DNA from: Pyrinomonadaceae bacterium
GTDB lineage: Bacteria; Acidobacteriota; Blastocatellia; Pyrinomonadales; Pyrinomonadaceae
Reading direction: 5' to 3'
Assembly (NCBI GenBank): GCA_963817025.1
Contig: CAWFML010000001.1
Span: 285,332-349,331 of the forward strand
DNA: 64,000 nt
The notes under the pieces are model-generated. The model was not told where the DNA came from. It did not search any database and saw nothing but the letters and a program-made list of their open reading frames with translations. Positions 5,205 to 57,411 of the stretch are shown here, piece by piece. Position numbers and translations under genes: made by a program. Position 1 is the stretch's first letter, and the number at the start of each line of letters is the position of its first letter.

Positions 5205-5339
5205 GTCAGAACCGCGAGCGAGAGCAAGGATGAAGGATGAAGGCGGAAGGATGAAAGGCAGGCCGTTCAAACATGAACCACTCAACTTTAAATAGCATGC
5301 TCTTCATCCTTCATCCTTGCTCTCGCTCGCGGTTCTGAC
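5205..5339. repeat. palindromic intergenic repeat, GGATGAAGG family (copy 1)
   Basis: Inverted arms gtcagaaccgcgagcgagagcaaggatgaaggatgaagg and ccttcatccttcatccttgctctcgctcgcggttctgac. A second copy lies at 58629-58743. Confidence 0.8.
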
Positions 5340-15656: not shown

Positions 15657-18251
15657 ATGCGTTTAGATAAATTCACCTTGCGCGGCCAGGAGGCCATACA
15701 GTCTGCCATAGAGGCAGCCGAGCGCAATCAGAATCAACAGGTCGAGCCGGAGCACTTGCTTCTTGCCATGCTTGAGCAAGCGGAAGGGACTGTGCGTCCT
15801 ATCCTCGGCAAGCTCGGGGCAAATGTGCAGGTCGTTCTCAACGACGTGCAGGCGGCCATCGCGCGCTTTCCAAAAGTGCAGGGCGGGCAGCAGTATTTCA
15901 GCCCGCGTCTCAGCCAGATATTTACTGCCGCCGAAAAGCTGGCGCAGGGGATGCAGGACGAGTACGTCTCCACGGAGCATCTGCTGCTCGCCATCGCTGA
16001 TGAGAAGGACGGGGGCGCAGGCAAAATCCTCAGACAGCACGGGGTCACGCGCGACGACCTGCTCAAAGTGATCGAGCAGATGCGCGGCGGCGTGCGTATC
16101 ACGGATCAGAACGCGGAAGCGAACTATCAGGCTCTCTCAAAGTATGCGAAAGACCTGACCGATCTGGCGCGGCAAGGCAAGCTAGACCCGGTCATCGGGC
16201 GCGACGACGAGATACGCCGCACGATTCAGGTGCTCTCGCGCCGCACGAAAAATAATCCTGTGCTGATTGGCGAACCCGGCGTCGGCAAGACTGCCATCGT
16301 CGAAGGCTTGGCCCAGAGAATCATTTCCGGCGACGTGCCCGAAACTTTGCGTAACAAGCGGCTGGTCGGGCTTGATTTGGGTTCGATGCTGGCGGGCGCG
16401 AAATATCGCGGCGAGTTTGAAGACCGTCTCAAAGCCGTCCTCAAAGAGATTGAGAACGCGCAGGGGCAAATCATTCTTTTCATAGACGAGCTGCACACAA
16501 TCATCGGCGCGGGCGCGGCAGAGGGCGCGATTGATGCTTCAAACATGCTCAAGCCCGCGCTGGCTCGCGGCGAGCTGCGCTGCGTCGGCGCGACCACGCT
16601 CAACGAATACAAAAAATATATCGAGAAGGATGCCGCGCTTGAGCGTCGCTTTCAACAGGTCTACGTCGGTGAGCCAACGGTTGAAGACACCATCGCTATC
16701 CTGCGCGGACTCAAAGAGCGTTACGAAGTGCATCACGGCGTGCGTATCAAAGACTCTGCGATTGTCGCCGCCGCAACCCTCTCGAATCGTTACATCACAG
16801 ACCGTTTCCTGCCTGACAAGGCGATTGACCTGATTGACGAAGCCGCCTCGCGCTTACGCATCGAGATTGATTCGCTGCCGCAGGAGATAGACCAGTTAGA
16901 GCGCGAGATACTTCAACTCGAAATCGAGCGGCAGGCTCTGGGGCGCGAAGAGGATGAGAAATCTAAGTCGCGTTTGAGAGACATAGAGCAGCGCATCGCA
17001 GACCTCAAGGAAAAATCTTCCGGGATGAAAGCCAAGTGGCAATCCGAGAAGGAAGAGATCGAGCGCATGCGCGAGGCCAAGAACGAGCTTGAACAACTGC
17101 GCCTGCAATTGGATCAGGCGCGCAACGCAGGCGATTTGACGCGCGCGGCGGAAATCCAGTACGGCAAGATTCCAGAGCTTGAGCAAAAGCTGATTCAGGA
17201 GCAACAGAAGCTTGTCGAGTTGCAAAGCGACGGCGTGATGCTCAAGGAAGAAGTTGACGAAGAGGACGTGGCCGAAGTCGTAGCCAAGTGGACTGGCGTG
17301 CCCGTCTCGAAAATGCTCGAAGGCGAGATGCAGAAGCTGGTCACGATGGAAGAGCGTCTGCGCAAGCGTGTCATCGGTCAGGACGAAGCTCTGACAGCCG
17401 TCGCCAATGCTGTGCGCCGCGCGCGTGCAGGCTTGCAAGACCCTAATCGCCCGGTCGGCTCGTTTATCTTTCTTGGTCCAACAGGCGTCGGCAAGACGGA
17501 GACCGCACGCGCTCTGGCAGAGTTTCTCTTTGACGACGAGCGCGCGATGATTCGTCTGGACATGTCCGAATACATGGAGAAGCACGCGGTCGCGCGCATG
17601 ATCGGCGCGCCGCCGGGATACATCGGTTATGAAGAGGGCGGGCAGTTGACGGAAGCCGTGCGTCGTCGTCCGTATTCCGTGATTCTCTTTGACGAGATCG
17701 AGAAGGCGCACCCGGATGTGTTCAACGTCCTGTTGCAAATCCTTGACGACGGGCGATTGACGGATTCAAAGGGACGCACGGTGAGCTTCAAAAACACTGT
17801 GCTGATTATGACTTCTAACTTAGGCTCGCGCGACATACAGGACTTGGGCGACGACGACAAGCAAATGCGCGAAGCAGTCCTACAGGTCTTGCGCGATCAT
17901 TTCAAGCCGGAGTTTTTGAATCGCATAGACGACATAGTTATCTTCCACCAGCTCTCGCGCGAACAGATCGTCGAGATCATAGACGTGCAGCTTGAGAAGC
18001 TTCGCCAGATGCTGGCAGAGCGCAACATCACGCTTGAGCTGGATGATTCTGCGAGAGAGCTTTTGTCGCGCGAAGGCTATGACCCGAACTATGGCGCGCG
18101 TCCTTTGAAGCGTGCGATTCAAACTCTGATTCAGAACCCTTTGGCAATCAGGCTGCTGCGCGGCGAGATGGCTGCGGGTGAAACAATTCGCGTTTCTGCC
18201 GATGGCGACGAGATGAAGTTCGAGCCTGTCACGGCAAACGCGACAGCATAA
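15657..18251 (+). CDS. clpB: ClpB disaggregase (AAA+ Hsp100 with M-domain)
   Basis: Two Clp_N repeats, D1 Walker [16 protein letters not shown], a long coiled-coil M-domain (residues ~410-520), D2 Walker [13 protein letters not shown] and a C-terminal SSD. The likely start is MRLDKFT at 15657 rather than the ORF-track 15636. Confidence 0.95.
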
Positions 18252-19482: not shown

Positions 19483-21253
<1,771 letters not shown>

Positions 21254-21350
21254 AAGGCAAAAGTAAAAAGGTAAAGGGCAAAAGTGAAGATATAAGGACT
21301 TATCAAGGCTGTTCTTCACTTTTGCCTTTTACCTTTTGCCTTCTTACTTA
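21254..21350. repeat. palindromic repeat, GGCAAAAG/GTAAAAG family (copy a), abutting the groEL stop
   Basis: ggcaaaagtaaaaaggtaaagggcaaaagtgaaga ...loop... tcttcacttttgccttttaccttttgcc. Confidence 0.85.
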
Positions 21351-21586
21351 TTTTGTTGGCAAGGCAGTTGCAGGTAAGCGATAATGCCTGTGGGTCATTG
21401 CATGGAAACGCAACGGCCCATGTGCCCCTCGCATCTAAACCTGGACTGTGGGACGTACAGCAAATTAGAAGCGAAAGCAATAGGGAGAAGGTCGAAACTA
21501 AAAGGTCAAACATTTGGCACACGCTTGACGCTTTGCTTGGCCCTTCATCGCTTCCGGGTAGACTCTAGCAAGTTGAGAAAAAAAGA

Positions 21587-23881
<2,295 letters not shown>

Positions 23882-23984: not shown

Positions 23985-24086
23985 CAAAGGCGCAAAAGGA
24001 AGGTAAAAGTGAAGAGTGATTGAATGCTTTCCTGCCTTTTACCTTTTACCTTTTTACTTTTACCTTCCTTTTGCGCCTTTGCGAGA
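23985..24086. repeat. palindromic repeat, GTAAAAG family (copy b) with GCGCAAAG-type outer arms
   Basis: caaaggcgcaaaaggaaggtaaaagtgaagag ... cctgccttttaccttttacctttttacttttaccttccttttgcgcctttgcg. Confidence 0.8.
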
Positions 24087-24120
24087 AAATTCTTCGCCAC
24101 TTAGCATCACTCTTAAACTT

Positions 24121-24963
24121 ATGAACTACAAAATCATTTTTCACACGAAATGGCCGCTCGCCATGCTTTCCCTGCTGCTTCTTCTCTGCCTGACGACTTT
24201 GAACATTCAGGCGCAGAGCGAAAAGGCCGCGCCTGCCGCGAAGCCCGCGCCCGCCGGCGAAGAGAAGGCCGAGCAGATTTTGCAGCAAGCCGCAGCCGCG
24301 CTTGGCGGCAACAGCTATCTGAGTGTCAGCACCGTCGTCGGGCGCGGCATGTACACGCTTTACAAGGAAGGCCAGCCGGAATTGCCTCTCACCTTTACAG
24401 ACCACCTCGTCTACCCGGACAAAGAGCGGACGGAGTTTCGCAGCGAGGGAATTAAAACCATTCAGGTCAACACGGGCGACACGGGCTGGATTTTTGACGG
24501 CGGGGCCAGAAGCTTGAAAGACCTGAAGCCCGATCAGATCAACAACTTCAAACTGGCAATGCGTATCAATATAGATAACCTGCTGCGCGGCGCGTGGCGC
24601 AAAGAGGGCGCGAAGATCAGCTATGCCGGAAGGCGCGAGGCGGGCCTTGCCAAACGCAATGAGACTGTACGCGTCTCCTATCCTGACGGCTTCACAGTCG
24701 AGTTCGAGTTTGGCGCGCAGGATCATCTCCCGGCCAAAATCATCTATCTCAAAAAGCATCCTGAGAACGATGACGAGTTTATCAAGGAAGAAGACCGCAT
24801 GGCGCAGTATCTCAACCTCAACGGCATCCTTGCTCCCTTCGTCATAGACCACTACAGCGCGGGAGTGCAGACCAGCCGCACCAACTATCAATCCATAGAG
24901 TTCAACGCGCCCGTCCCCGACAGCCTCTTTACGCGTCCGGCGAATGCGAAGGCCGTCAAGTAA
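24121..24963 (+). CDS. secreted hypothetical protein (signal peptide)
   Basis: MNYKIIFHTKWPLAMLSLLLLLCLTTLNIQAQS signal peptide. The ORF-track start at 24016 lies inside the repeat element and is rejected. Confidence 0.6.
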   Translation: MNYKIIFHTKWPLAMLSLLLLLCLTTLNIQAQSEKAAPAAKPAPAGEEKAEQILQQAAAALGGNSYLSVSTVVGRGMYTLYKEGQPELPLTFTDHLVYPDKERTEFRSEGIKTIQVNTGDTGWIFDGGARSLKDLKPDQINNFKLAMRINIDNLLRGAWRKEGAKISYAGRREAGLAKRNETVRVSYPDGFTVEFEFGAQDHLPAKIIYLKKHPENDDEFIKEEDRMAQYLNLNGILAPFVIDHYSAGVQTSRTNYQSIEFNAPVPDSLFTRPANAKAVK

Positions 24964-25053
24964 AAAAAGGAAAAAGGTAAAAGGTAAAAGGTAAAAGTGA
25001 AGATGAAAGCAATGCCGTTCTGACTTTTACCTTTTACCTTTTTCCTTTTTCCT
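24964..25053. repeat. palindromic repeat, GTAAAAG family (copy c)
   Basis: aaaaaaggaaaaaggtaaaaggtaaaaggtaaaagtgaagatgaaagcaatgccgttctgacttttaccttttacctttttcctttttcc. It abuts the stop of the 24121-24963 gene and is followed by a half-site of the GCCACAGAGGAC family. Confidence 0.8.
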
Positions 25054-25073
25054 TTCTCTTGTGTCCTCTGTGG

Positions 25074-30162: not shown

Positions 30163-30490
30163 CTGCCTCCGTGCGGGTTATCCGAAGAGACTTTCAAAAT
30201 ATAACTGCTGCAAAGTTCGTCCCAGAGATAAAATAGGAAGAATCCGTTTCATCAATAAATAACACTCAAGTCGCACAGATTTCAAACTCAGAGTGAGTTT
30301 TGTTGTTTTTATAGCCATTAGCGATTGGATATAGCCGCTTGAGCAGGGCATCTTGTCAGAACCGCCTGCGGCAAGCGTGCGGGTTCTTAGCATTGAAGAC
30401 CCGCACGCTTGCCGCAGGCGGTTCTGACCTGTGTCTACACTCAATCGCAAATTGCTATAGTAGTTGCCCGCAGGAATTTGGTTAGATTAA

Positions 30491-30745
30491 CGTGAGTTCG
30501 ACGGAAGAACGGTGCGGTGTTAGTTAGCCCCGGAGGGGCGGCATATATTAGCCCACGGCTTCAGCCGTGGGGACAGCACCCACATCAATGGTCTAAGCCC
30601 CGGAGGGGCGGCATAATCTATACCGCCCCTCCGGGGCTTAGACCTTGTAGGGCGTCTTGTCCCAGCACTGACGTGCTGGGCTAATATATGTCGCCCCTCC
30701 GGGGCTGTCATGGAGCAATCCTCTTCCGCTTATATCGAACTCACG
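30491..30745. mobile_element. MITE-like non-autonomous element, copy A (255 bp, 11-bp terminal inverted repeats, 9-bp target-site duplication TTAGATTAA)
   Basis: Ends are cgtgagttcga...tcgaactcacg. It is flanked on both sides by ttagattaa. The interior carries four copies of the palindromic 14-mer GCCCCGGAGGGGCG and its reverse complement. Copy B at 51512-51789 is the reverse complement. Confidence 0.8.
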
Positions 30746-30892
30746 TTAGATTAAATAGAGCAGGTGAATTGTGCTACGGATATATCTGGAAACCGTGCCT
30801 AAATACCCGCCACGCGGTTTTCAAATTAGAAAACAGAATTGGCTGCTCAATTTCGAGCAGCCAATTCTGTTTTCAGCGACCTGAAAGCCGGA

Positions 30893-33121
30893 TTACTTCG
30901 TGAGCGGCTTAGGCCCGTTCTCCGCCGCCTTGGTTCCGTTCTCCGACGGAGCTTTCATCTGATCGCGGAACAGGTTAAGCAAAAGCAGAGTTCCGAGATT
31001 GCCCGCGCCGCTGTCGCCATTGCCGCCGGAGGCCATGACATCCGGCGTGATGCGGACGTTCTTCTCGCCGATGACCCTGAGAGTTTCGACGAGGGCGACG
31101 CCCTGCGCGCCCAGCGCATCAACCTGTTCATGATAGGCCACGCCCTGAGCTTCGCCCATCAGGCGCACCTTCTCCGCTTCGGCCTTACCCGTCGAGAGAA
31201 TGTAGTGCGCTTCGCCATCCGCTTCGGCCTTGCGCTGTTCGGCGCGCTTGCCTGCAATCTCGACGCCGACGATTTCCGCCATCAGCGACTTCTGATTGTC
31301 CGCGTGCGCGCTCGTCTTCTCAAGCTGGATACGCTGCACTTCGGCTTCGCGCTGCGCGTTGTACATGTTCTGCCGCTGCTCTGCGAGAATCTTCTCGGTC
31401 TGCGTCTTCATCAGCTCTTCCGGCAGATGGATGTGGCAGATGAGCACGTTGACGACATCAACGTGGTATTTCAAGAGATGCATGCGGACGCGTGCCTCTG
31501 CGCGCTCCTGTTCCTCGTGGCGATTTTGCAGGTACGCCATCGCGCTTGATTCGGATGCCTGATTGCGGAAGATAGAGTCGATCAAAGGATGCATCACGTT
31601 CTGGACCAGCTTTTCGGTGCTGCCGATCTTGGCGACCATGAAGGGCGCGTCCTCTGGCTTGACGCGAAAGACGACGCGCACTTCCAGTTTCATCGTGAAA
31701 CCGTCTTTCGAGATGACTTCAAACGGGTCGAAGGTATTGTCCAGTTCTTCGGCAGTCCATTCGACCGTCATGTTTGTCGTCGGGATGACGATGGGCGAGA
31801 CGGCCAGCGTATTGATGTAGTAGCGACCCGGCCCCATCACCGTTTCCTGTATGCCGCGAAAACCTTCCGGCACGACGTAGGCTTCGTGCGCGCCCTGATC
31901 CAAACGCTGGTCTGCGGGATCGCTGGCGAGCAGTTCTGCTTCGAGGTCTTCGACCATCTTCTGCTCGCCCTCTAATTTGTCGAGGCGCGCGACGGCCTTG
32001 CTCACCTGCTCCTTCTCTTCGCGCTCCATACGCTCTCTGACCTTCGTCGCCATCACGCGGCGCACTTCTTCGCCGGGGTCTTTGCCGATGTTCGAGACGA
32101 TGACCGCGACCTCGCCGGGCTTGATCTCTTTCGCCGACTCAGGAATCACTTTGAAGACGAGCGGGTTGATGTAGTAAGTGCCGGGCAGCAAGATGTCTTT
32201 CTGCGGGCCGCGCTGTCCGCCGCGCGTGATGAACTCGTTACAGTCCTGAAAGTTGTCGTGGCCTTCGACCGGAGTGGCGACGTAATCGCGCGGGTCTAAG
32301 GGCGCGCCGTCGAGGGCTTCGACCAGTCCGATAGCATTCTCCGTAATCACTGTCGCGTCATAGAGCCGCACGAAAAAGAGGCCGGGCTTCGTTTCGTTGC
32401 CGCCGTCGAGCGGAACCGATTGCGTCAGGATGCGGTAAGTTCCGGGCGTCAGGATTTCGACCTGCGGGCCTTTTTGACCGCCACTGGCGATAAACTGTTC
32501 CGCGTCCTGAAAATTGCGATGGTCTTGGATGGCTTTGCCGTGCAGACGTCCGGCGTCGAGTTGCGCGCCGTCCGCAACCGTCACCACTCCAACCTTGCCC
32601 GGCGGGATGACCGTCATCTTCGAGACTGAGACGCGGAAGAGATACGGGTGAATGGGCCACAATCCCGGCGGCAGGGTTCTGAGCTGTATGCCTTTGACGC
32701 CGCCCTGCTTGATAAAAGCAATCGGGTCTTGAAAGTTGTTGTGCGCGTTCTGTGCTCTATCGGGCGCGAAGATGCGGCCCGCAGGCATCGGGTCGCCGTC
32801 AACCGCTTCGATAATGCCGATCTCATCCGGCCCGATCTCGATCAGGGGGACTTTGCGGACGACGCTCTCAAAGGGGTATTTAATCAGGTGGAGGCCCGGT
32901 TTGAGCACGTCCGCCTGTATGCCGACTTCGCCTTCGGTGGCGACGACGCGGCCCGGAGGCATCTTTGAGCCGAAGTAACGCCGCTCCTTAATCGCAATCT
33001 CCGTCGCACCGACATTGACGAAGATGCGACGCAAGACAAGGACGAGCACGATCAGCGCGATAAACGCGACGATCAGAAAAGGGACGAAAGACATGATGTC
33101 TATGTTCATTAGAAACCTCAC
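30893..33121 (-). CDS. flotillin/SPFH (band-7) family membrane protein with five tandem SPFH-like N-terminal modules
   Basis: N-terminal TM helix. Five ~60-aa repeats each have NFQD-x3-FI-x2-GG-x-G-Q/I-x3-L-x-PG-x-Y/H-x-I-x-P-x-x-F/V, followed by a flotillin-like region (FMVAKIGSTEKLVQNVMHPLIDSIFRNQ...) and a long Ala/Glu/Lys/Gln-rich coiled coil. Confidence 0.7.
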   Translation of the reverse strand: MRFLMNIDIMSFVPFLIVAFIALIVLVLVLRRIFVNVGATEIAIKERRYFGSKMPPGRVVATEGEVGIQADVLKPGLHLIKYPFESVVRKVPLIEIGPDEIGIIEAVDGDPMPAGRIFAPDRAQNAHNNFQDPIAFIKQGGVKGIQLRTLPPGLWPIHPYLFRVSVSKMTVIPPGKVGVVTVADGAQLDAGRLHGKAIQDHRNFQDAEQFIASGGQKGPQVEILTPGTYRILTQSVPLDGGNETKPGLFFVRLYDATVITENAIGLVEALDGAPLDPRDYVATPVEGHDNFQDCNEFITRGGQRGPQKDILLPGTYYINPLVFKVIPESAKEIKPGEVAVIVSNIGKDPGEEVRRVMATKVRERMEREEKEQVSKAVARLDKLEGEQKMVEDLEAELLASDPADQRLDQGAHEAYVVPEGFRGIQETVMGPGRYYINTLAVSPIVIPTTNMTVEWTAEELDNTFDPFEVISKDGFTMKLEVRVVFRVKPEDAPFMVAKIGSTEKLVQNVMHPLIDSIFRNQASESSAMAYLQNRHEEQERAEARVRMHLLKYHVDVVNVLICHIHLPEELMKTQTEKILAEQRQNMYNAQREAEVQRIQLEKTSAHADNQKSLMAEIVGVEIAGKRAEQRKAEADGEAHYILSTGKAEAEKVRLMGEAQGVAYHEQVDALGAQGVALVETLRVIGEKNVRITPDVMASGGNGDSGAGNLGTLLLLNLFRDQMKAPSENGTKAAENGPKPLTK

Positions 33122-40483: not shown

Positions 40484-40554
40484 GCGGAAGCAAGTTTTTT
40501 CAATAGCGGGTCAGTTTGAAATTCCGGTGAATATTCATCAGGACGAAAGAGATT

Positions 40555-40680
40555 CGCGCAAAGGCGCAAAAGCAAGGCAAAAGTAAAAAGGTAAAAGGCA
40601 AAAGTGAAGACGAGTTGACTGCCTTTCTTACTTTTACCTTTTACCTTTTGCCTTTTTACTTCTGTCGCGCCTTTGCGCGA
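40555..40680. repeat. composite palindromic repeat: GCGCAAAG outer arms enclosing a GGCAAAAG/GTAAAAG core
   Basis: gcgcaaaggcgcaaaagcaaggcaaaagtaaaaaggtaaaaggcaaaagtgaagacgagttgactgcctttcttacttttaccttttaccttttgcctttttacttctgtcgcgcctttgcgcg. Confidence 0.85.
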
Positions 40681-40761
40681 ACATGTTTTTTCTTCGCTGC
40701 TATTGAAACTGAAGAGCTACCGTTTTTTTAGGTTACGTTCTCATTTCGGAAAGATTCTCCC

Positions 40762-42657
40762 ATGAAAAACTCAAACAGCCTTGCGTCTCCCTCTCAGGCA
40801 AACATCTTTTCGCGCATGGCGTTGCTCCTGAGCCTGCCGCTCATGCTCCTGCTTATCACGCACGCGCATGTCAACGCGCAGACGCAAACGCCCGTCGTCG
40901 TGCAGGAAGAGGCGACCACCACGACGAATGCCGTCGAGCGTGCGACAAAGGAAGCAGTCAAGGCCAAGTCCGTTGTCCGTGGCCGCGCCGTCTATGATGA
41001 TACGGATCGGCCCGTGCGCCGCGCTCGCGTCATGCTGCTGGATATGAACCAGCGCGGGCCGGAGCGCACGGGGATGACCAACGGCTCCGGCGAGTTTCAA
41101 ATCAAGGAAGTTCCGGCAGGCAACTACTTTGTGATGGTGGATATGACGGGAGTGATTACGCCTATCAGCTTCGTTGATTTTGAGGATGCCAGCGGCGAGA
41201 AATTCAATCTTGAAGAGGTGAAAAAGCATTTCACGGAAATCGCCGTGGACGGCACGAATGACCAGACCATCAAGGTGCGTGCGCGAAAGGGCGGAGCCAT
41301 CAGCGGCAAAGTGACATACGCGGATGGAGATGCGGCCATCAACGTGCGTGTCAACATCATGCGCAAGAAAGACGGAAAGCTGGCGCGCTTTATCACCAAT
41401 CTTAACCCGTCTGCGTTATTCGGGATTCAAACGGACGACCGTGGGATGTATCGCATCGCAGGGCTGCCGCCCGGCGAATACAACATCAGCGTAGCAGAGA
41501 CTGTGGATCACTCGGAGGGGCGCAGCGGTCGTGAAGAATACTATATGGGGATGAACATGTTCGGCGGCAACTCTCTGCTGGTCACATATTATCAGGGCGC
41601 GACCGATGAGAAAGAGGCGACTTCCCTACAGGTTGACGCCGGACAGGAATATAACGAGATCAACATCTCGCTGGTCGAGCGCGTGCTGCATAAACTCTCG
41701 GGAACAGTCGTCGCGCGGCGTGACAACAAGCCTCTTCCCAATACTCGCATCAGCATCAAAAGCAAAACCGACACCCTTCCAGACTTTGGTTTTATGTCTG
41801 TCGGGCCGGGCGCATCCACAGACGAGCAGGGCCGTTTCACGCTCAACGAGATACCCGACGGCGTTTACACCCTGACGGTCGAATCAACTTATTCAGGCCC
41901 GGAGGTAAGAACTGAAGTGGATGAAGAAGGGTCGCCGTCAACGGCACCCAACGAGTCGAGGCGCAAGCTGATACGCAAGCAGCAGGACGTAACCGTCAAC
42001 GGCAACGATGTGGCGGATTTGACGATCACTCTCATAGAGGGCGCAATCCTCAACGGCACTGTGATGGTTGACGGGGGCAAACCGCTCCCGCCGCTGACTT
42101 ATGTGACGATGGCGGATGCGAGCGGCGCGGTGGTCAGCGATGTCCCGGTGGAGGTGCAGCAAGACGGCAGTTTCACGATAGACGGTTTGCCTGCGGGAGC
42201 CGTTTACCCGAACGTCTCTGTCAGAGCCACGAGTGAAAACTATTACGTGAAATCAATGACGGCAGGCGGCGCGGACTTGATGCGTGACGCGCTCGCCGTC
42301 GGCGAGGGCGCGAACATCAATGGCGTGAAGATTGTCATCTCGCCTGATGCGGCGACGCTCACGGGCCGCGTGCTCGCACCGGACGCTACGCCTGTCAGCG
42401 GCGCGCGCTTTGTGCTTATCCCGGCAGACCTAACTCGTTGGCGCGCACGCATCTCTTATCTCTTCGGAGATTCTGCGGGCAACGGCAGCTACACCGTCAG
42501 CGGCGCGCCCGGAGAGTATCTCATCGTCTTCATGCGACCGGCAGACCAGCCGAACGCCATCAACGAGGCGTGGATTAGAGAACGCGCCGTAAACGCACAG
42601 CGCGTGACGCTGCTGCCGAAACAGAGCAAGAGCATGAACCTGACCATGCCTCAATAG
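40762..42657 (+). CDS. secreted protein with multiple carboxypeptidase-regulatory-like (CarboxypepD_reg / transthyretin-like) beta-sandwich domains
   Basis: Signal peptide. Repeated modules of the type VRGRAVYDDTDRPVRRARVMLLD...GEFQIKEVPAGNYFV, LSGTVVARRDNKPLPNTRISI...GRFTLNEIPDGVYTL and LTGRVLAPDATPVSGARFVLIP...GSYTVSGAPGEYLI. Confidence 0.6.
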   Translation: MKNSNSLASPSQANIFSRMALLLSLPLMLLLITHAHVNAQTQTPVVVQEEATTTTNAVERATKEAVKAKSVVRGRAVYDDTDRPVRRARVMLLDMNQRGPERTGMTNGSGEFQIKEVPAGNYFVMVDMTGVITPISFVDFEDASGEKFNLEEVKKHFTEIAVDGTNDQTIKVRARKGGAISGKVTYADGDAAINVRVNIMRKKDGKLARFITNLNPSALFGIQTDDRGMYRIAGLPPGEYNISVAETVDHSEGRSGREEYYMGMNMFGGNSLLVTYYQGATDEKEATSLQVDAGQEYNEINISLVERVLHKLSGTVVARRDNKPLPNTRISIKSKTDTLPDFGFMSVGPGASTDEQGRFTLNEIPDGVYTLTVESTYSGPEVRTEVDEEGSPSTAPNESRRKLIRKQQDVTVNGNDVADLTITLIEGAILNGTVMVDGGKPLPPLTYVTMADASGAVVSDVPVEVQQDGSFTIDGLPAGAVYPNVSVRATSENYYVKSMTAGGADLMRDALAVGEGANINGVKIVISPDAATLTGRVLAPDATPVSGARFVLIPADLTRWRARISYLFGDSAGNGSYTVSGAPGEYLIVFMRPADQPNAINEAWIRERAVNAQRVTLLPKQSKSMNLTMPQ

Positions 42658-42750
42658 AAGGCAAAAGTAAAAAGGTAAAAGGCAAAAGTCAGAGAAGCAT
42701 TCAACTGCTCTTCACTTTTGCCTTTTACCTTTTTACTTTTGCCTTCTTCC
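42658..42750. repeat. palindromic repeat, GGCAAAAG/GTAAAAG family (copy e), abutting a stop codon
   Basis: aggcaaaagtaaaaaggtaaaaggcaaaagtcagagaagcattcaactgctcttcacttttgccttttacctttttacttttgcc. Nearly identical to the copy at 57412-57505. Confidence 0.85.
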
Positions 42751-42898
42751 GGCTCTGCGGTAAAGTTTTTAGTCGCAACCGAACAAAACCCGCTATAATC
42801 AACCTCGCCCCATCCTGTACATTCAGACTCTCCCGTTGTCTCAGAAATGAAAGCCGCTTGAGGAAGGCAAGCGTTGCGCTCGAAGCTCATTTTTTGCG

Positions 42899-45751: not shown

Positions 45752-45850
45752 CTCCCGCAAAGACGCAAAGGCGCAGAGGAAGACCGCAAAGGTGTTGAGT
45801 GCCACTCGCTCTTGGCGTGCTTTTCTTTAAGCCTTTGCGCCTTTGCGGGA
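45752..45850. repeat. palindromic repeat, GCGCAAAG family (copy d)
   Basis: cgcaaagacgcaaaggcgcagaggaagaccgcaaaggtgttgagtgccactcgctcttggcgtgcttttctttaagcctttgcgcctttgcg. Confidence 0.85.
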
Positions 45851-45893
45851 AACTGTCTTTTGGTCTCCGCGCTTGTCATCTGAAACTGACTCA

Positions 45894-46310
45894 CTACCCA
45901 ATTTTTGATTTACGCTTGCGCCGTTCTCCTGCATCCGTGAAGGCAAAGGCGAATCCGAAGACGAAGGTCGCAGGGAAGAAGATAAACATCGCTTTCTCCC
46001 AGAGCCGGAATTTCTCGAAGTCTTCCTCTGTGCGCGTCGTGCCGCCCTTGCCTGCGTAGCCGTTTCCGGTTTGCCTGATAGGCGCATCAGGAAAGTTGTA
46101 AGCCCCGTAGATCAAGGTGGCAGATGCCAGCACAGACGCAGTGATAGTGAGCAGGAGCAGGAGGCGCGTGAGTGGCCCACGATGCCGCGCCCTTTTCCGC
46201 TCAAGCCCGGCCTGTCTAGCCATCTGTGTATATAACGCCTGTGCCTCGCTCAGAGCATCGCGCCCTTGCTCCGGCGCGGGCTGTGAACTCCTGCGGTCAG
46301 CTTCTTTCAT
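45894..46310 (-). CDS. hypothetical membrane protein
   Basis: ORF with two predicted TM helices (LLLLTITASVLASATLIYGAY; IFFPATFVFGFAFAF). The start is uncertain; the internal MKEADRR at 46310 is preferred over the ORF-track 46418. Confidence 0.35.
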   Translation of the reverse strand: MKEADRRSSQPAPEQGRDALSEAQALYTQMARQAGLERKRARHRGPLTRLLLLLTITASVLASATLIYGAYNFPDAPIRQTGNGYAGKGGTTRTEEDFEKFRLWEKAMFIFFPATFVFGFAFAFTDAGERRKRKSKIG

Positions 46311-50107: not shown

Positions 50108-50213
50108 CCCGCAAAGGCGCAAAGGCGCAAAGCAAGACGCGAAGAAAGCGTTCAAGATAAATAGAGCTTCAACACCTTTGCGTGCTTTTCTTTGCGCCTT
50201 TGCGCCTTTGCGC
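50108..50213. repeat. palindromic repeat, GCGCAAAG family (copy e)
   Basis: cccgcaaaggcgcaaaggcgcaaagcaagacgcgaagaaagcg...cacctttgcgtgcttttctttgcgcctttgcgcctttgcg. Confidence 0.85.
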
Positions 50214-50234
50214 GAGTCGTTCTTTATGAGCTTG

Positions 50235-50737: not shown

Positions 50738-51484
50738 TTGGCGGGATTCCTCATGAAAGATAAGCTCCAAAAAGCGATCCGAAATAACAACCGTCTCTAT
50801 GAGGCGATCTTCAGCAGTCACGGGATAAAATCTCACTTCACAGATGCTCTATGGTATTGCACGGCAGAGACTCCGCCGCTTTATTCCAACCTCGTCACTC
50901 TTTCCGCAGACTGGAAGCCTGAAGACATTTTCCGCAGCATTGATCTCAAATACGAGCAGGAAAGATGGAGCAAGTGGTCAATCAAAGATAGCTTTGGCGT
51001 GTTGGATTTGAGCCGCTATGGATTAACAAAACTTTTCGATGCGCGCTGGCTCTATCTTGAGCCGGATAATTTTAAACCAACAGCCGAAGGCCCGAAACTG
51101 CGTTATGAGATTCTGAAGACAGAAGCGGCTTTGTCCCTGTGGCGGCGCGCATGGGACGCGGAAGAGCAGCTCGGAAAAGAAATCTTCGATGCAAAATTAC
51201 TGGCTGACGAAAGCGTTTATTTCGTCGCCGGATACAGCGGAGATAAAATCTTGTGCGGGTGCTTCATCAACCGGACGGATGATGTTTTAGGCGTCTCAAA
51301 TTTCTTCTCGCCCGTCGAAGACATTGGCTACTGGTCTGAGATGATAGCTTTTATCTACGGCTCAATCGAACGCTCGGACATAGTGGGCTATGAGCGAATC
51401 GGGTTGGCGGACAAGCTTCGCGCGTCAGGGTTTGAGTCAATCGGAAATCTGGCCGTGTGGCTAAAGAAAAGAGAGCCGCTTTAA
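50738..51484 (+). CDS. hypothetical protein (possible acyl-CoA N-acyltransferase-like fold; unverified)
   Basis: 248-aa ORF whose stop directly abuts the host palindrome of MITE copy B. Confidence 0.4.
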   Translation: MAGFLMKDKLQKAIRNNNRLYEAIFSSHGIKSHFTDALWYCTAETPPLYSNLVTLSADWKPEDIFRSIDLKYEQERWSKWSIKDSFGVLDLSRYGLTKLFDARWLYLEPDNFKPTAEGPKLRYEILKTEAALSLWRRAWDAEEQLGKEIFDAKLLADESVYFVAGYSGDKILCGCFINRTDDVLGVSNFFSPVEDIGYWSEMIAFIYGSIERSDIVGYERIGLADKLRASGFESIGNLAVWLKKREPL

Positions 51485-51511
51485 CCACAAAGGCACAAAG
51501 GCACTAAGAAA

Positions 51512-51789
51512 CGTGAGTTCGATATAAGCAGAAGAGGATGCTGCATGACAGCCCCGGAGGGGCGACATAGCTTAGCCCGGCACGTCAGTGCCGGGACAAG
51601 ACGCCCTACAAGGACGAAGCCCCGGAGGGGCAACATATTATGCCGCCCCTCCGGGGCTTCGACTTTTGATGTGGCTGCTGTGTCCACGGCTGAAGCCGTG
51701 GGCTAATCTATGTCGCCCCTCCGGGGCTATCTAACATCTCGCCCCTCCGGGGCTAACTGACACCTCACCGTTCTTACGTCGTACTCACG
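51512..51789. mobile_element. MITE-like element, copy B (278 bp, inverted relative to copy A), nested inside a GCACAAAG-family palindrome
   Basis: Terminal inverted repeats cgtgagttcga...tcgtactcacg. Flanking duplication ctaagaaa / ttaagaaa. The interior has GCCCCGGAGGGGCG units. The host palindrome arms ttaaccacaaaggcacaaaggcactaagaaa (51481-51511) and ttcttagtgtctttgtgcctttgtggttaa (51809-51838) are split by the insertion. Confidence 0.8.
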
Positions 51790-51898
51790 TTAAGAAAATG
51801 ATTCCTCTTTCTTAGTGTCTTTGTGCCTTTGTGGTTAATCTGTCTTTATTCTTATCCGCGCCTATCCGCGTTCATCCGTGGCTGATTCGTCTCTTTTC

Positions 51899-54763
51899 TC
51901 ACGGCACAAAAGCAGCCGGGGCGGGTTTGTCTCCCGCCATGCCGAAGTTGACCGCGCGAAATAGCCCGTCTGACGATTGCTGTATGTACCATGTACCGTC
52001 GCGGAAGACGGAGATGTCAGCGCGACCATCGCCGTCATAATCGGCTGGCGTCGGAGTGTCGGAAGCGATGCCGAAATTCAGGGCCGTAAAGCCCTGCGTC
52101 GAGCGATTCAAATACCAGTCGCCGTTTCGATAAACAGCCATGTCTGCGCGCCCGTCACCATCGTAATCCGAAACCACAGGTCTATCTGTCGAAAGACCGA
52201 AGCTGATGGCTAGAAGCTGGTTGTTAGAGCTTTGCAGGACATACCAGCCTCCATTTGACGGGCGGAAGATGGCCGCATCCGTCTTGCCGTCGCCATCGTA
52301 ATCCGCCGCCACGGGCTTGTCGCCAAGAGCGCCCCACTCAATCGCGCGGAAATCAACTCCGGGCTGCGACGACGGGCGATAGAAAAAGTAGCTCTGCGGA
52401 TTGCCAGCAGTTCCGGCACGAAAGACAGCGACATCGGCGCGGCTATCGCCATCGAAATCGCCTGAGACTGGCACGTCGCCCGCCGCGCCGAATTGTTCAA
52501 AGCGATACGAGTTGGCAGCGCTTTGCCAGATATGGAAATAAGCTCTGTCGGGCGTGGTCTCGCGCCAGACGGCCATGTCCGTTCTGCCGTCGCCGTCGTA
52601 ATCTGCGGGCGCGATTTTGTCTCCATTCGTGCCGAACGGGGAGTAAGTGAACTGGCCGTCGCCGCTGTTCAAGCGATACCAGTAGCCGTCCGCCGGACGC
52701 CAGACAGCGACATCGGATTTGGTGTCGCCGTCAAAATCAAAAGCGGTCACGCGCGCTACGCGCAAAGGCTGCCATTTCGGCAAAGTATCCGATGGGTCTG
52801 CCGTCAGGCGCAAGCGTCCAGTGCCCTCCGCATTGACCGTGTAAATCCCTTTCAAAGACTGGACTACGAGACAGCAAGTGAGCACGACCTTCCTGCCGTC
52901 CGGCGAAAAAGAAGGATTGCCGTCACCGCCATTGGGCAACGTCATGCGATTCGAGCCGTCCGCGTTCATCACCCAGTTTGTCTGAGTCGTCACGTCCTGA
53001 CCGTAGACAAAGACAATCTTGCTGCCATCCGGCGAGTAAGACGCACGGCCATAGAATTGGGGGGTGTTGGTCAACAGCGTCTCGTTCGTCCCGTCTGCGT
53101 TCATGGTTCGGAGCGAGAAACCCGAACGATTCGCGGTAAAGAGGATTTTACTTCCATCCGGATGATATGACGGGAAATAATCTGTTCCAGCGACATTGGT
53201 TAATCTGGTCTGGTTCATCCCGTCTGCATCCATCCGGTAAATCTCGTAGTTGCCATCGCGGAAGCTACTAAAGACAATCTTGCTGCCGTCCGGCGAATAA
53301 GCAGGCACGCCGTCATCAGCCGTGTTATTGGTCAAACGAAGAGGACTGCTGCCGTCTGCATTCATCCGGTAAATCTCGTTGTTGCCATCGCGTGCACTGA
53401 CGAAGACGATTTTGCTGCCGTCCGGCGAGTAAGCAGGCGCGGTATCAAGCCCCGGATTGTTGCTCAGGTTGATCTGGTTCGAGCCGTCCGCGTTCATCGA
53501 ATAGATTTCCGAATTCCGCTCAAAAGCAATCCTGCCGTTGCGGGAGCAGTTTGTCCCGATACAGGTCTCGGTGGCCGTAAAGTCTACGAGCTGATTCGCG
53601 CTCAGGTTATTAAAAGCGCGGCTGGCCGGGGCGAAAAGGTTGTACGCCAAAAAAGGATGCACAGTATAGTTGCCGCCTGCCGGGACGTTATCAAAGCGAT
53701 AACTGCCGAAAGAATCTGTGACGGTCGTCGTCGTCCCGGAAGGGCCGATTAAGCTGACAGTCACGCTGCTCACGCCCGCGCCGACGCGCGTGACGCGCCC
53801 GTGAATCACAAAAGTATCGGGCGCTTGAGGCACTGGCTGCCACGCGGGTGAGTTGACTACGTTGCCTGTAGAGCCGGGCACGTCTTCGATGATTCGGCGC
53901 TGATTCGCGCCATTAACATCCATTACATACAGGCCGTTATCGATCCCGCTTTTCCGGGCGAAAGCGATTTTCGTCCCGTCACTGGACCAGGCAGGCTCTA
54001 TATCGACCGTGCCATGCGAAAGATTCGTTTCGTTTGACCCGTCAAGGTTGATGACATGAATGCTCCCATTCTTGGCGAAAACAATCTTCGAGCCATCTGG
54101 CGACCATGCGGGATTGCTGTCTGTCTGAGCATTATTGGTGACGGGCAGTTGATTCATCCCGTTCGCGTCAATGACGTAGATTCTCCCGCCGCTCGTGAAA
54201 GCGAGTTTCGTGCCGTCCGGCGACCATGCGGGAGCAGTGGGCGTCGGTTGAGTGATGCCCGCGAACTGCATCTGGTTCGAGCCGTCCTCGTTCATCACCC
54301 AAATCTGGTCAGAACGCTGATAAGCGATTTTGCCCGTCACAGACCACGACGGATTGGAGCCGGGTCCCAGCATAACGCCGCCCGTCCCGTTTGCGTTGAT
54401 AGAATGGATAACGTCGAAAGTGACAAAAGCAATCTTGCTGCCGTCCGGCGACCATGCCGGTTCTCTCGGAAAATAAGGCGGAAACTCCGTCACACACGTC
54501 CGACCTGAGCCGTCCGCGTTACTGGTGCACAGGGTAGCGCGCGGGCCGCTAAAAGTAGAAATCGTTACGGCATAGGCCAGTCTGCCGAGCGTGTCGGGCT
54601 GGGCCGCAGAATCGGCAAGAGCCTGTTTGTCTGCGCGCAAGCCGGGATGCATTTCGGCTGGTTTGGTAAGCAGCAGAAATCCGGCGCAACCGAGCAGCAT
54701 TAACCCGACGACCAACAACAGGCGGCGCGCGTGGGAGGCAGTTCTAGCGGGATTTTTTTTCAT
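51899..54763 (-). CDS. large secreted beta-propeller protein: tandem TolB-like PD40 repeats plus C-terminal FG-GAP/VCBS repeats
   Basis: 954 aa with a signal peptide. It has more than 10 PD40-like repeats (PAWSPDGSKIAF, PAYSPDGSKIVF, PSYHPDGSKILF...). The C-terminal ~280 aa has FG-GAP repeats (FDFDGDTKSDVAVWR, ADYDGDGRTDMAVWR, ...). Confidence 0.75.
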   Translation of the reverse strand: MKKNPARTASHARRLLLVVGLMLLGCAGFLLLTKPAEMHPGLRADKQALADSAAQPDTLGRLAYAVTISTFSGPRATLCTSNADGSGRTCVTEFPPYFPREPAWSPDGSKIAFVTFDVIHSINANGTGGVMLGPGSNPSWSVTGKIAYQRSDQIWVMNEDGSNQMQFAGITQPTPTAPAWSPDGTKLAFTSGGRIYVIDANGMNQLPVTNNAQTDSNPAWSPDGSKIVFAKNGSIHVINLDGSNETNLSHGTVDIEPAWSSDGTKIAFARKSGIDNGLYVMDVNGANQRRIIEDVPGSTGNVVNSPAWQPVPQAPDTFVIHGRVTRVGAGVSSVTVSLIGPSGTTTTVTDSFGSYRFDNVPAGGNYTVHPFLAYNLFAPASRAFNNLSANQLVDFTATETCIGTNCSRNGRIAFERNSEIYSMNADGSNQINLSNNPGLDTAPAYSPDGSKIVFVSARDGNNEIYRMNADGSSPLRLTNNTADDGVPAYSPDGSKIVFSSFRDGNYEIYRMDADGMNQTRLTNVAGTDYFPSYHPDGSKILFTANRSGFSLRTMNADGTNETLLTNTPQFYGRASYSPDGSKIVFVYGQDVTTQTNWVMNADGSNRMTLPNGGDGNPSFSPDGRKVVLTCCLVVQSLKGIYTVNAEGTGRLRLTADPSDTLPKWQPLRVARVTAFDFDGDTKSDVAVWRPADGYWYRLNSGDGQFTYSPFGTNGDKIAPADYDGDGRTDMAVWRETTPDRAYFHIWQSAANSYRFEQFGAAGDVPVSGDFDGDSRADVAVFRAGTAGNPQSYFFYRPSSQPGVDFRAIEWGALGDKPVAADYDGDGKTDAAIFRPSNGGWYVLQSSNNQLLAISFGLSTDRPVVSDYDGDGRADMAVYRNGDWYLNRSTQGFTALNFGIASDTPTPADYDGDGRADISVFRDGTWYIQQSSDGLFRAVNFGMAGDKPAPAAFVP

Positions 54764-55106
54764 AATTCTATTTTCCTATATTGGCGGCGAGGTTTTATCT
54801 CTTTCACATTTTCCGAAATTGAATTCATAAATACCCGTTAATGATTACAAAGACCGTATTATATTAGGAATATTTCAAGCTGATGCAGCATTCCGGGCAT
54901 TGACGAGATTGGTTCTAACAGTTGGGGCGACTCTGGAAATCAGTTCCGGCTGGCATCATTTGGCGAGAAGCGCGGATTTGTAATCTTCAAGAAGCTTTCT
55001 TAGGCCAGAAACATAGCCACCTTACACGTGATTGCGGTAAATCTTTCAATCTGAGGGAAATTCAGGTAGTGGGTCAGTTTCAGATGACAAGCCCGGAAAC
55101 CAAAAG

Positions 55107-55209
55107 CATGTTCGCGCAAGGGCGCTGGTGGCGCAAAGAAAGCACGCCAAGAGCGAGTGTCATTCAACACCTTTGCGGTCTTTCTTTGCGCCACCAGCGC
55201 CTTTGCGCG
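55107..55209. repeat. palindromic repeat, GCGCAAAG family (copy f, inverted relative to copy d)
   Basis: gcgctggtggcgcaaagaaagcacgccaagagcgagtgtcattcaacacctttgcggtctttctttgcgccaccagcgcctttgcg. Confidence 0.85.
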
Positions 55210-55379
55210 AATATGCTTTTCTTCGCTATTTGTGAAGCAGACTCACTACTCCCTGAAAAAGGGACTAGCCGGGATGAAGCGCTTCGTTATATAATGCTTT
55301 TGCCTGCGAGATTTTCTCTCTCGCTTAGCAATTGCCCATCTAAATATTTTTCCTCCTCAAGCTTGCAATCTCGAACATC

Positions 55380-57410
55380 TTGAAATATTCAACGACATCA
55401 TTCAAAACATTTGTGTTCTCGTTCCTGCTCTCGGTCTTGGCCGCGCTCTCGATTTGTGCGCTGTGGGAGGCGGGGCTGCTGGCTTCTATGCAGAAAGCCT
55501 TTCTGCTCAGGCATCCGGAGATCACGGCTGAAATAGTTGCGCCGCAGCTATGGATTGCGCTGCTGCTGATTTTTACGGCGGGCATCTTCGCGGGCCTCGC
55601 GGTGGAGCGCATGGGCGCAAGGCGCGCGTTGCCCTTTATCTCAGGCGCGCTGATAGCCGGTTGCGCGGCGAGCTTTCTCAGCTCCTACTTTTTGCAGGTA
55701 GATGTGGTCTTTGCGCCCGCCGCGCTCTCCACGCTGGCCGCTGCCGCTCTGGTGCAGACAGCGCGCCTCTGGCACGTTGATGTGATGCTGACGCGCAACA
55801 TGCGACAGGTGGCCGCGCAGACTCACGCGCTCGAAGGCGGAGCAGCCCACGCGCGGCTGATGAGCGGCCTACGGCTGCTGGACACAGTCCTCCCTCTGGA
55901 CGAGGCCGTGATTTTTCATCCGGACGAGAATAACCATCTCGCCCCGGCTGCTCGCTTGCGCGCCACTGCCGGAGAGAAGCCGGAAAGCAATCCGAACTCT
56001 GCATGGCGCGAGGGCGTGGAATTGTGCGAGCGCGCGGTCAAGACCGGCAAGATGATGATGATGATGGCCGAGACAGGAGACGGCCCTGCGAGCATCGCTC
56101 TGCCTTTGAGGCATGAAGGTCGTGCTGTCGGAGCTTTGCTGGTACGTCTCTATGAGGGATTTGACGAGAGCGACCGTCCGCTGCTGGCTGCGGTCAGCGC
56201 GCAGATGGCCCGGAATTTTCAGCGCGACGAAGCGCGCAATCAGATTCTCAAAAAAGATTTGTGGGACTACGTCTCCGTCCACGCGGCAGAGCGGCGGCTG
56301 GCCTCTTTCGGCGTCGTCAGCGGTTTGATGACGGAGCAGAGATTCGGCGCGCAGGCTCTGGCCGAAACCTCTGACGGCCATGCGGTCGCATATCTTGACG
56401 GCACGCTGGCGCACATCAACCCGGAGATGCTCAAGGCCGCGCGGCTGACGGAAGATTTGGCGCGCAAGCTGGACATCTTCGGCCTCTTAGACCTTTTTCG
56501 CACGGGCGTCTTTGACGAGCCTTCCATAGCCGTCCGGCGCGTCCTGCAAACAGGCGACCCCTACGAGCGCGAGCTGCATTACGTCGAGCGCAATCAGACG
56601 CTTGAGCTGCGGATAGCCCTCATCACAGAGGGCACGCGCGCCGCCGGAGAGAATGAAGAAAGCGCGGCGCAACCGCTCTGCCTGTCCGTCACCGTGCGCG
56701 ATGTGACGCGCATGAAGGAGTATGAAAAATTGAAGAGCGACATGATCTCGCTGATGTCGCACGAACTCAGAACTCCGATTACGAGCATCAACGGCTTTGC
56801 GGAATTGCTGGCGATGGACGAAAGCATTCCCGAAGAATCGCGCGAGTTTCTGACCATCATCTCCAATGAATCGCAACGCCTCTCGCGGATGATTAATACC
56901 TTCCTCGCCGTCACGCAGCTCGAAGCCGCAGACAAACAGGAGGTCTTGAAAATCCCGCTCAAGATGGACGATGTGGTGCGCGAAACTCTCGCCAGCCTGC
57001 TGCCCGTCGCCAAGAAAAAACGCATCCGTCTGATAGAACAACCGGCCTCGCGCATGCCGCCTGTGGCCGCAGACAAGAGCCTCATCACACAGGTCGTCGC
57101 CAATCTCGTCGGCAACGCCATCAAGTACAGCCCTGAGCGCACGACCGTCACGGTCTCGACAGTGCTCGAAGCAGATGCCGTGCGCGTGCAGGTGGAAGAC
57201 AAGGGTTACGGCATCCCGCCCGAATCAATTGATAAAGTATGGGAGAAATTTTATCGCGTGGCGCGCGACGGGCAGGAGAAGGATGAAGAGTCAACCGGAC
57301 TCGGACTCGCCTTCGTGCGCGAAGTCGTAGAGCAGCACGGCGGCGAGGTCGAAGTTGAATCCGAAGTCGGGCGCGGCTCGACCTTCAGCTTCACGCTGCC
57401 CAGACTCTAA
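55380..57410 (+). CDS. sensor histidine kinase (polytopic N-terminal domain, central GAF-like region, HisKA, HATPase_c), orphan
   Basis: H-box SHELRTPITS, N-box VVANLVGNAIKYS, G-boxes DKGYGI and GLGLAFV. The start codon is uncertain. Confidence 0.85.
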   Translation: MKYSTTSFKTFVFSFLLSVLAALSICALWEAGLLASMQKAFLLRHPEITAEIVAPQLWIALLLIFTAGIFAGLAVERMGARRALPFISGALIAGCAASFLSSYFLQVDVVFAPAALSTLAAAALVQTARLWHVDVMLTRNMRQVAAQTHALEGGAAHARLMSGLRLLDTVLPLDEAVIFHPDENNHLAPAARLRATAGEKPESNPNSAWREGVELCERAVKTGKMMMMMAETGDGPASIALPLRHEGRAVGALLVRLYEGFDESDRPLLAAVSAQMARNFQRDEARNQILKKDLWDYVSVHAAERRLASFGVVSGLMTEQRFGAQALAETSDGHAVAYLDGTLAHINPEMLKAARLTEDLARKLDIFGLLDLFRTGVFDEPSIAVRRVLQTGDPYERELHYVERNQTLELRIALITEGTRAAGENEESAAQPLCLSVTVRDVTRMKEYEKLKSDMISLMSHELRTPITSINGFAELLAMDESIPEESREFLTIISNESQRLSRMINTFLAVTQLEAADKQEVLKIPLKMDDVVRETLASLLPVAKKKRIRLIEQPASRMPPVAADKSLITQVVANLVGNAIKYSPERTTVTVSTVLEADAVRVQVEDKGYGIPPESIDKVWEKFYRVARDGQEKDEESTGLGLAFVREVVEQHGGEVEVESEVGRGSTFSFTLPRL

Positions 57411-57411
57411 A

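Follow-up and report, generated by a model that had tools for sequence, protein, structure and literature searches.

The closest described system to the elements reported here is MITECca01/ISCca4, an IS982-derived MITE of the Cardinium endosymbiont of Oedothorax gibbosus (PMC9769881). MITECca01 resembles our element in being about 240 bp long, in lacking a transposase, in having inverted repeats that hardly differ from those of an IS982-family insertion sequence (IS), and in having many copies that are presumed to be mobilised in trans (PMC9769881). Compared by description only, it differs in that its host belongs to the Bacteroidota, its parent IS lies in the same genome, and no hairpin cassette or Rfam motif has been described in it. 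Members of the IS982 family have "AC" ends, are about 1 kb long, produce direct repeats of 2-10 bp (7 bp in IS1187), and share the inverted-repeat signature AC(N)6T(N)5TT (PMC7335449). Our element is like members of this family, for example IS1187 and IS195 (PMC7335449), in starting with AC at positions 1-2, in having T at position 9, in having inverted repeats of about 18-20 nt, and in being flanked by a 7-bp target-site duplication (TSD). The T at position 15 of the signature is also present; however, position 16 is A rather than the T of the family logo, the element is only about 255-280 bp long, it has no transposase gene, and its interior is unrelated.

The interior leads to a second described system, the Acido-Lenti-1 motif (RF01687), known from 89 sequences, mostly of Lentisphaera araneosa and Koribacter versatilis, and described as a probable trans-acting RNA, the only remark on its context being an occasional proximity to group II introns (Weinberg et al. 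2010, PMC2864571). Each half of our element has the two hairpins and the CUA linker of this motif, with compensatory changes in an 8-bp stem. Unlike the probable small RNA published for Acidobacteria and Lentisphaerae, the motif here always occurs as an inverted pair and is the cargo of an element bounded by terminal inverted repeats (TIRs) and TSDs.

REP, BIME and REPIN elements, which are mobilised by RAYT (IS200/IS605-like) transposases, are also short G+C-rich palindromes arranged as inverted pairs in intergenic DNA near gene 3′ ends. They have neither IS-type TIRs nor TSDs, and the 13-mers of our element are without the GTAG or CGTC tag. Correia elements of Neisseria, ERIC and RUP are likewise long imperfect palindromes that fold as one hairpin, lie between genes and have TA-rich targets; they differ from our element in their transposase families, TIRs and TSD lengths (TA for Correia).

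The window analysed here is a 64,000-nucleotide stretch of DNA from a member of the Pyrinomonadaceae (Acidobacteriota), and it contains two copies of a repeat, A and B. We conclude, with a probability of roughly 0.87, that both are copies of an IS982-type MITE with Acido-Lenti-1 hairpin cargo.

Two inverted copies of a non-coding element

An earlier note on this DNA, made from its letters alone, had described a MITE-like element at 30491-30745 with an inverted second copy at 51512-51789, 11-bp TIRs, and flanking duplications of 9 bp at copy A and 8 bp at copy B. Both copies, their inverted orientation and their flanking duplications were confirmed. Copy A lies in the sequence ...GG TTAGATTAA/CGTGAGTTCGA...TCGAACTCACG/TTAGATTAA ATAG..., the slashes marking the ends at 30491 and 30745, and copy B, inverted relative to A, in ...CAC TAAGAAA CGTGAGTTCGA...GTACTCACG T TAAGAAA ATG..., with flanks CTAAGAAA and TTAAGAAA. 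The boundaries had to be revised. The termini lie one base further out on each side, so that the repeat starts with AC, is perfect over at least 12 nt and is conserved over about 18 nt; by family-wide boundaries the duplications become 7 bp (TAGATTA) at copy A and 6 bp (TAAGAA) at copy B. A 9-mer is seen at copy A because a flank base and a TIR base, its outer T and A, agree by chance. The revised features and the genes on either side of copy A are as follows.

30490-30746 (+): MITE copy A, 257 bp counting the terminal A and T, ends ACGTGAGTTCGA...TCGAACTCACGT (ACGT...ACGT)
30490-30507 (+): left TIR of copy A, ACGTGAGTTCGACGGAAG
30729-30746 (-): right TIR of copy A, ACGTGAGTTCGATATAAG, read on the minus strand
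30483-30489: left TSD of copy A, TAGATTA
30747-30753: right TSD of copy A, TAGATTA
51511-51790 (-): MITE copy B, 280 bp
51505-51510: left TSD of copy B, TAAGAA (alternatively the 7-bp TAAGAAA, if the first A of the element is assigned to the TSD)
51791-51796: right TSD of copy B, TAAGAA
28780-30162 (-): CBS-domain PLP enzyme gene, on one side of copy A
30893-33121 (-): Band_7 gene, on the other side of copy A

When copy B is reverse complemented, the two copies are identical at 88% of columns, and their flanks are unrelated outside the termini. Copy B is longer by one 26-nt module with a further 13-mer, near 51729-51754. The TIR ACGTGAGTTCGA...TCGAACTCACGT is perfect in copy A and matches at 11/12 positions in copy B. 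Chance does not account for the repeated structure: the 18-nt pattern of the TIR has 4 matches in the 64-kb window against 0.36 expected, all four of them copy ends, and the 13-mer GCCCCGGAGGGGC has 9 matches against 0.13 expected, all nine within copies A and B. Copy A folds as one long hairpin of -100.6 kcal/mol (z = -15.8 versus shuffles).

Both copies are intergenic, and copy B lies between two convergent genes. The sole open reading frames (ORFs) inside them (53-68 aa) overlap the hairpins and are out of frame between A and B; we therefore rejected a protein-coding role for these ORFs and regard the element as non-coding. At 257 and 280 bp, below about 600 bp and without a transposase gene, the copies have the size of a MITE, and they have further MITE hallmarks: TIRs, TSDs of consistent length and multiple dispersed copies.

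Related copies in other genomes

The earlier note held that its reading would fail if the genome had no further copies and the flanking 9-mers were not duplicated at other copies. Relatives contain about 19 further copies, and TSDs occur at other elements (see below). We scanned species-representative genomes by exact match for the 13-mer and the TIR separated by 15-45 nt, so that copy counts are lower bounds. The scan returned 21 loci with these 19 or so true copies; the Acidobacteriota/Pyrinomonadaceae MAGs that hold them number at least five, besides the window, and account for nearly all of the loci; one of the 21 loci is in a "Sphingobacteriaceae" MAG, and one in Bryobacterales looks like a chance match. 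Acidobacterial copies are 70-78% identical to copy A and have a common architecture, and the similarity ends exactly at the termini. In most copies an A precedes CGTGAG and a T follows CTCACG. Shorter derivatives of about 110 bp (L020) and about 170 bp (L015) are also found, plus solo ends.

The locus on the contig labelled Sphingobacteriaceae, which is low in G+C, is a 210-bp element (L002, 1853-2062) with the same termini, 13-mer-like hairpins (GCCCCAGAGGGGC) and the TSD TAATTTA/TAAGTTA. It could reflect either spread across phyla or a binning artefact.

Copies from the same genome group together, at 80-91% identity to one another; this suggests lineage-specific amplification that is not recent, whereas the IS copies of the MAG GCA_037719565.1, described below, are identical. 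Judged from this identity of only 80-91%, copies A and B are probably old, immobile relics.

Target-site duplications

Flanks could be used for 87 TIR-bounded elements, of which 59 have the size of a MITE and 28 that of an IS; we compared them with a control in which flanks of different elements were paired. A perfect 7-bp TSD is present in 17 of the 87 elements (about 20%) versus 0.3% of the mismatched controls, and at least 6 of 7 flank positions match in 28% of elements versus 3% of controls. All 17 perfect TSDs start with TA, and their consensus is TAnnTTA. The duplications at IS copies (TAAAACA, TAAGTTA, TATTACA, TAGGTTA, TATGTTT, TAGAATA and TAACTTA) and those at MITEs (TAGATTA, TATTCAA and, at L018, TAATCTT, with AAGATTA in an alternative reading of L015 and L018) have length and target motif in common. 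We adopted the 7-bp register because the IS copies and the 17 perfect TSDs set it. A 9-bp duplication as a general rule was considered and rejected: the 9-bp reading matches at 8/9 and 7/9 positions at L163 and L165, and 7 bp is perfect or better in the three Pyrinomonadaceae IS copies described below, one of which reads 8 bp.

An uninterrupted paralogous site can be seen in one case. The L015 and L018 insertions share flanks, and an uninterrupted paralogue of their host repeat (28/32 identical) has a single AAGATTA. At copy A, the window CBS protein has its nearest named relatives, with 89-92% identity, in Pyrinomonadaceae, which puts the source genome within or close to that family. The element is absent between the Band_7 and CBS genes of the nearest syntenic relatives, L022 and L024 (92% aa identity). 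The spacer can no longer be aligned, so there is no base-precise empty site, and an exact-match scan of metagenomes for the empty site predicted at copy A returned none. Where the window has the MITE, the Band_7-CBS spacer of the closest syntenic relative contains a gene call of 66 aa in opposite orientation (L022, 4529-4729).

An IS982-family partner

The earlier note had also suggested searching for an IS with matching inverted repeats, and had named IS5/IS1182-like or IS630/Tc1-like elements as those that a TSD of 8-9 bp would suggest. The search succeeded, with another family as its result. Viral contigs scanned with AACGTGAGTTCGANATAAG had 18 matching loci, and at several of these lie elements of 1029-1070 bp bounded by ACGTGAGTTCGA...TCGAACTCACGT. 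Each of the three ~1-kb elements scanned has a single ORF of 300-303 aa that scores 246-277 bits against NF033520 ("IS982 family transposase", cutoff 130) and also matches PF13612. These ~1-kb IS982 elements have the identical 12-nt termini and a 7-bp TSD. Both the termini and the transposase model scores thus identify the partner family as IS982. An IS5/IS1182 partner was rejected: the transposases score 18-41 bits on the IS5, IS1182, IS4 and ISNCY models versus 246-277 on IS982. IS630 makes a 2-bp TA duplication. An IS630 partner was rejected as well: the matches listed included none to IS630, and duplications of 6-7 bp are unlike 2-bp TA.

Scanning metagenomes with AACGTGAGTTCGASRTAAG yielded at least 120 loci, on contigs of 27-66% G+C; among the matches listed are many full-length IS (998-1071 bp) and many MITE-sized pairs of termini (94-460 bp). 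We used the transposase of L106, from a contig of 55% G+C, as a query, and two of its matches are named "IS982 family transposase [Pyrinomonadaceae bacterium]". The gene of one of these, P0169, lies in three identical 1000-bp IS copies on three contigs of the MAG GCA_037719565.1, with termini ACGTGAGTTCGACGTAAG and the TSDs TAAAACA, TAAATTT(A) and TAAGTTA. The left end of copy A, ACGTGAGTTCGACGGAAGAA, matches the left end of this Pyrinomonadaceae IS at 17/18 positions (19/20 when extended), and the right end of copy A, ACGTGAGTTCGATATAAGCG, matches at 16/18 (18/20 when extended).

No IS982 transposase or remnant was found by tblastn with both Bacteroidota-type and Pyrinomonadaceae-type queries, either in the 64-kb window (best E = 0.69) or in 24 acidobacterial loci. 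The earlier statement that the window holds no transposase stands in this respect, that is, for the IS982 type, the only type looked for.

On metagenome contigs of varied G+C, the same IS982-type termini also enclose various other cargoes of MITE size (94-391 bp), which include tandem hairpin arrays, tandem repeats and single palindromes:

L098, 594-984: other-cargo element
L118, 2305-2588: other-cargo element
L121, 2070-2354: other-cargo element
L123, 6316-6618: other-cargo element
L157, 148-364: other-cargo element
L146, 6242-6397: other-cargo element
L046, 323-517: other-cargo element
L107, 5327-5420: other-cargo element

That so many unrelated cargoes lie between the same termini argues that the termini are the mobile part. 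Among the full-length elements, two diverged IS982 copies at L057 (3577-4618 and 4626-5666) form a direct tandem with only TAGGTTA between them; TAGGTTA is also found to the left of the pair, and one of the two copies has a shortened ORF.

The interior is a paired Acido-Lenti-1 cassette

At the gathering threshold, an Rfam scan of the window returned five matches, one to tmRNA and four to RF01687. The tmRNA gene lies at 62074-62466 (-) and matches the full-length model with 169.8 bits. The four RF01687 matches, at 55-66 bits versus a gathering score of 37, form two modules per copy on opposite strands:

30526-30571 (-): Acido-Lenti-1 module, left half of copy A, 62.0 bits; hairpin 2, linker and 13-mer hairpin
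30661-30706 (+): Acido-Lenti-1 module, right half of copy A, 65.7 bits
30597-30637: central palindrome of copy A, two inverted GCCCCGGAGGGGC 13-mers with a short loop
51550-51595 (-): Acido-Lenti-1 module, copy B, 61.2 bits
51683-51728 (+): Acido-Lenti-1 module, copy B, 55.0 bits

Followed from the centre outwards, a half-element begins with a 13-mer that belongs to the central inverted pair. After a spacer come a hairpin with an 8-bp stem (CCCnnnnC-loop-GnnnnGGG) and, joined to it by the linker CTAnnnnnTnnC, a hairpin of the form GCCCC-loop-GGGGC; some 25 variable bases separate this second hairpin from the terminus. The interior is a near-palindromic cassette, each half of which is what Rfam names Acido-Lenti-1. 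The same arrangement extends to the relatives, where 28 further RF01687 matches in 18 related loci form minus-strand/plus-strand pairs within elements.

An alignment of 32 half-elements shows that the last ~18 bases and the hairpin stems are conserved and that the spacers are variable. Standard pairs make up 99.3% of 563 pair cells, with one G-U pair only, and compensatory changes occur at four pairs of the 8-bp stem of hairpin 2 (A-U to C-G, and G-C to C-G or A-U). Neither shuffling nor sliding the register gave values close to these. The near-absence of G-U fits a DNA palindrome, which pairs on both strands or is self-copied, at least as well as it fits a single-stranded RNA.

These data bear on whether the loci are instead paralogous genes for an Acido-Lenti-1 small RNA, with terminal repeats that are incidental. 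The four matches above the gathering score speak for such genes, as do the rating of the motif as a probable RNA on the basis of covariation (Weinberg et al. 2010, PMC2864571) and a sigma-70-like sequence inside copy A (ATGACA-17 nt-TATATT, 30683-30711, minus strand). This sequence is directed at the CBS gene, which begins about 520 nt downstream of it; copy B has a poorer match, and the family does not conserve it. Promoter supply by IS982 elements is on record (PMC7335449). Against the small-RNA reading, no terminator-like site was found. The modules are always inverted pairs on opposite strands inside an element with transposon ends and TSDs, copy B is itself enclosed by a second hairpin, with convergent genes on either side, and a single G-U in 563 cells is expected for a two-strand DNA palindrome rather than for a one-strand RNA. 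We consider the small-RNA reading very unlikely. Its disagreement with the MITE reading is mostly about what the primary unit is, and the status of MITE cargo is compatible with transcription.

The cassette is not confined to IS982 ends. Three Acido-Lenti-1 cassettes of the same architecture have no recognisable IS982 termini:

L010, 1265-1500: cassette
L003, 5069-5142: cassette
L009, about 2790-3040: cassette with ends that resemble degenerate IS982 termini (ATGTGAG) and with compensatory GCCCC-to-GTCCC changes in the 13-mer stems

One of the three adjoins a complete MITE. Additionally, no exact IS982 TIR (11-mer) was found in the flanks of the published Acido-Lenti-1 seed sequences of Lentisphaera and Koribacter, which are often in tandem arrays; the association of cassette and IS982 is therefore lineage-specific rather than universal. 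Taken with the cassettes that lack IS982 ends, it indicates that the cassette does not depend on those ends. The hairpin cassette is older or more widespread than its link with them.

These same observations, together with stems maintained by compensatory changes, are what would be expected if the hairpin cassette were the true unit, REP/BIME- or REPIN-like and spread or maintained by a RAYT-type enzyme, template switching or gene conversion, with IS982 ends that are secondary or accidental in one lineage. In the window and in most related copies, however, similarity ends at IS982-type termini followed by 6-7-bp TSDs that match those of full-length IS in length and motif, and TSDs are not produced by REP-type elements. 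The 13-mers of copies A and B are without an adjacent GTAG or CGTC tag, and the unrelated cargoes between identical termini again mark the termini as the mobile part. A REP-like origin is thus improbable.

We also considered that the cassette is a functional, selectable structured DNA or RNA module, native to several phyla and captured between IS982 ends in Pyrinomonadaceae, and that this IS982 subgroup habitually spreads structured non-coding cargo. The second part is prompted by the varied hairpin and tandem-repeat cargoes between identical termini in metagenomes. Candidate roles could be a bidirectional terminator or insulator, or a protein-binding site. If this were true, the stem compensation in copies that are 70-90% identical would be due to selection and not to palindrome-templated repair. 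We regard it as unlikely.

Copy B interrupts a host palindrome

The earlier note had placed copy B inside the arm of another palindrome, and excision in silico bears this out. The host palindrome is of the CACAAAGG type:

51481-51510: left arm of the host palindrome, overlapping the stop codon of the 50738-51484 (+) gene
51808-51838: right arm of the host palindrome

Once 51511-51796, comprising copy B and one TAAGAA, is deleted, the two arms again form a hairpin, whose stem has 31 bp (-54.2 kcal/mol), and the duplicated TAAGAA bases have a single complementary partner in the opposite arm.

This precise interruption is hard to reconcile with the idea that the two copies arose without transposition, by segmental duplication or recombination of palindromic intergenic sequence. 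Only two copies that are 88% identical are present in the window, and palindromic repeats are abundant in the genome, as that idea would have it. Yet the flanking sequences show no relationship past the termini, A and B each have a separate TSD, and dozens of copies with the same end bases lie at unrelated loci in other genomes, which makes a simple duplication extremely improbable.

Long palindromes with arms of 30-50 nt that are 84-100% complementary, and with short tandem units, are common in the window:

5205-5339: long palindrome
21246-21354: long palindrome
24000-24096: long palindrome
24959-25061: long palindrome
30349-30430: long palindrome
40544-40705: long palindrome
42650-42757: long palindrome
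45770-45905: long palindrome
50110-50225: long palindrome
55102-55220: long palindrome
57401-57511: long palindrome
63030-63158: long palindrome

By tandem unit they fall into three types, AAGGCAAAAGTAAAAAGG, GCGCAAAGG and GTCAGAACCGC...(GGATGAA)n. Most lie directly 3′ of gene ends or between convergent genes, and they look like a lineage-typical, terminator-like repeat class. MITE copies are often inserted in such palindromes, as seen for copy B and for L015, L018 and L021.

Two further repeated features of the window were noted. Copy B is adjoined by a 954-aa ORF (51899-54763, minus strand) with internal repeats of a period of about 129-150 nt; in translation these resemble TolB/beta-propeller repeats and, after them, FG-GAP/VCBS-like repeats. 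Two paralogous AAA+ genes (16261-18251 and 22218-23881), about 6 kb apart, have P-loop-encoding segments that are 70-96% identical, and their ORFs of 871 and 764 aa look ClpB-like by their repeated Walker-type motifs.

Discussion

The earlier proposal of a non-autonomous TIR element that makes TSDs and is mobilised in trans by a DDE transposase is supported by the additional copies in relatives, the TSDs above controls, the IS with identical termini and the reconstitution of the host palindrome. We propose that an IS982-family DDE transposase encoded elsewhere would bind the ~18-nt termini ACGTGAGTTCGAnnTAAG and move the element, inserting it at TA-rich sites (consensus TAnnTTA) by a staggered cut whose repair would duplicate 7 bp, sometimes 6 or 8 bp. 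By this scheme the source genome would have an active transposase now or would have had one earlier; the partner that we located lies in a different Pyrinomonadaceae MAG. Any role of the hairpin cassette for the element or for the host is something that we only infer.

No new mechanism is involved, and this is a fairly ordinary kind of mobile element, one that explains the Acido-Lenti-1 motif in this lineage. In the literature searched, we found no report linking Acido-Lenti-1 to a MITE or IS982 to Acidobacteria. What is new here is the host phylum, a terminal signature that retrieves relatives with unrelated structured cargo, and the finding of Acido-Lenti-1 as paired MITE cargo in Pyrinomonadaceae.

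IS982-derived MITEs are hereby extended to Acidobacteriota; among the 70 ISfinder members of the IS982 family reviewed in 2020, none came from Acidobacteria (PMC7335449). In this lineage RF01687 proves to be paired transposon cargo, and automatic annotation of its matches in Pyrinomonadaceae as small-RNA genes is therefore probably misleading. The covariation that defines Acido-Lenti-1 may itself be a product of DNA-palindrome maintenance. For practical use, ACGTGAGTTCGAnnTAAG termini together with a 7-bp TAnnTTA duplication form a signature that retrieves both autonomous and miniature members from metagenomes. Finally, the repeated landing of these elements in terminator-like palindromes at gene 3′ ends makes them relevant to operon boundaries in these soil bacteria.
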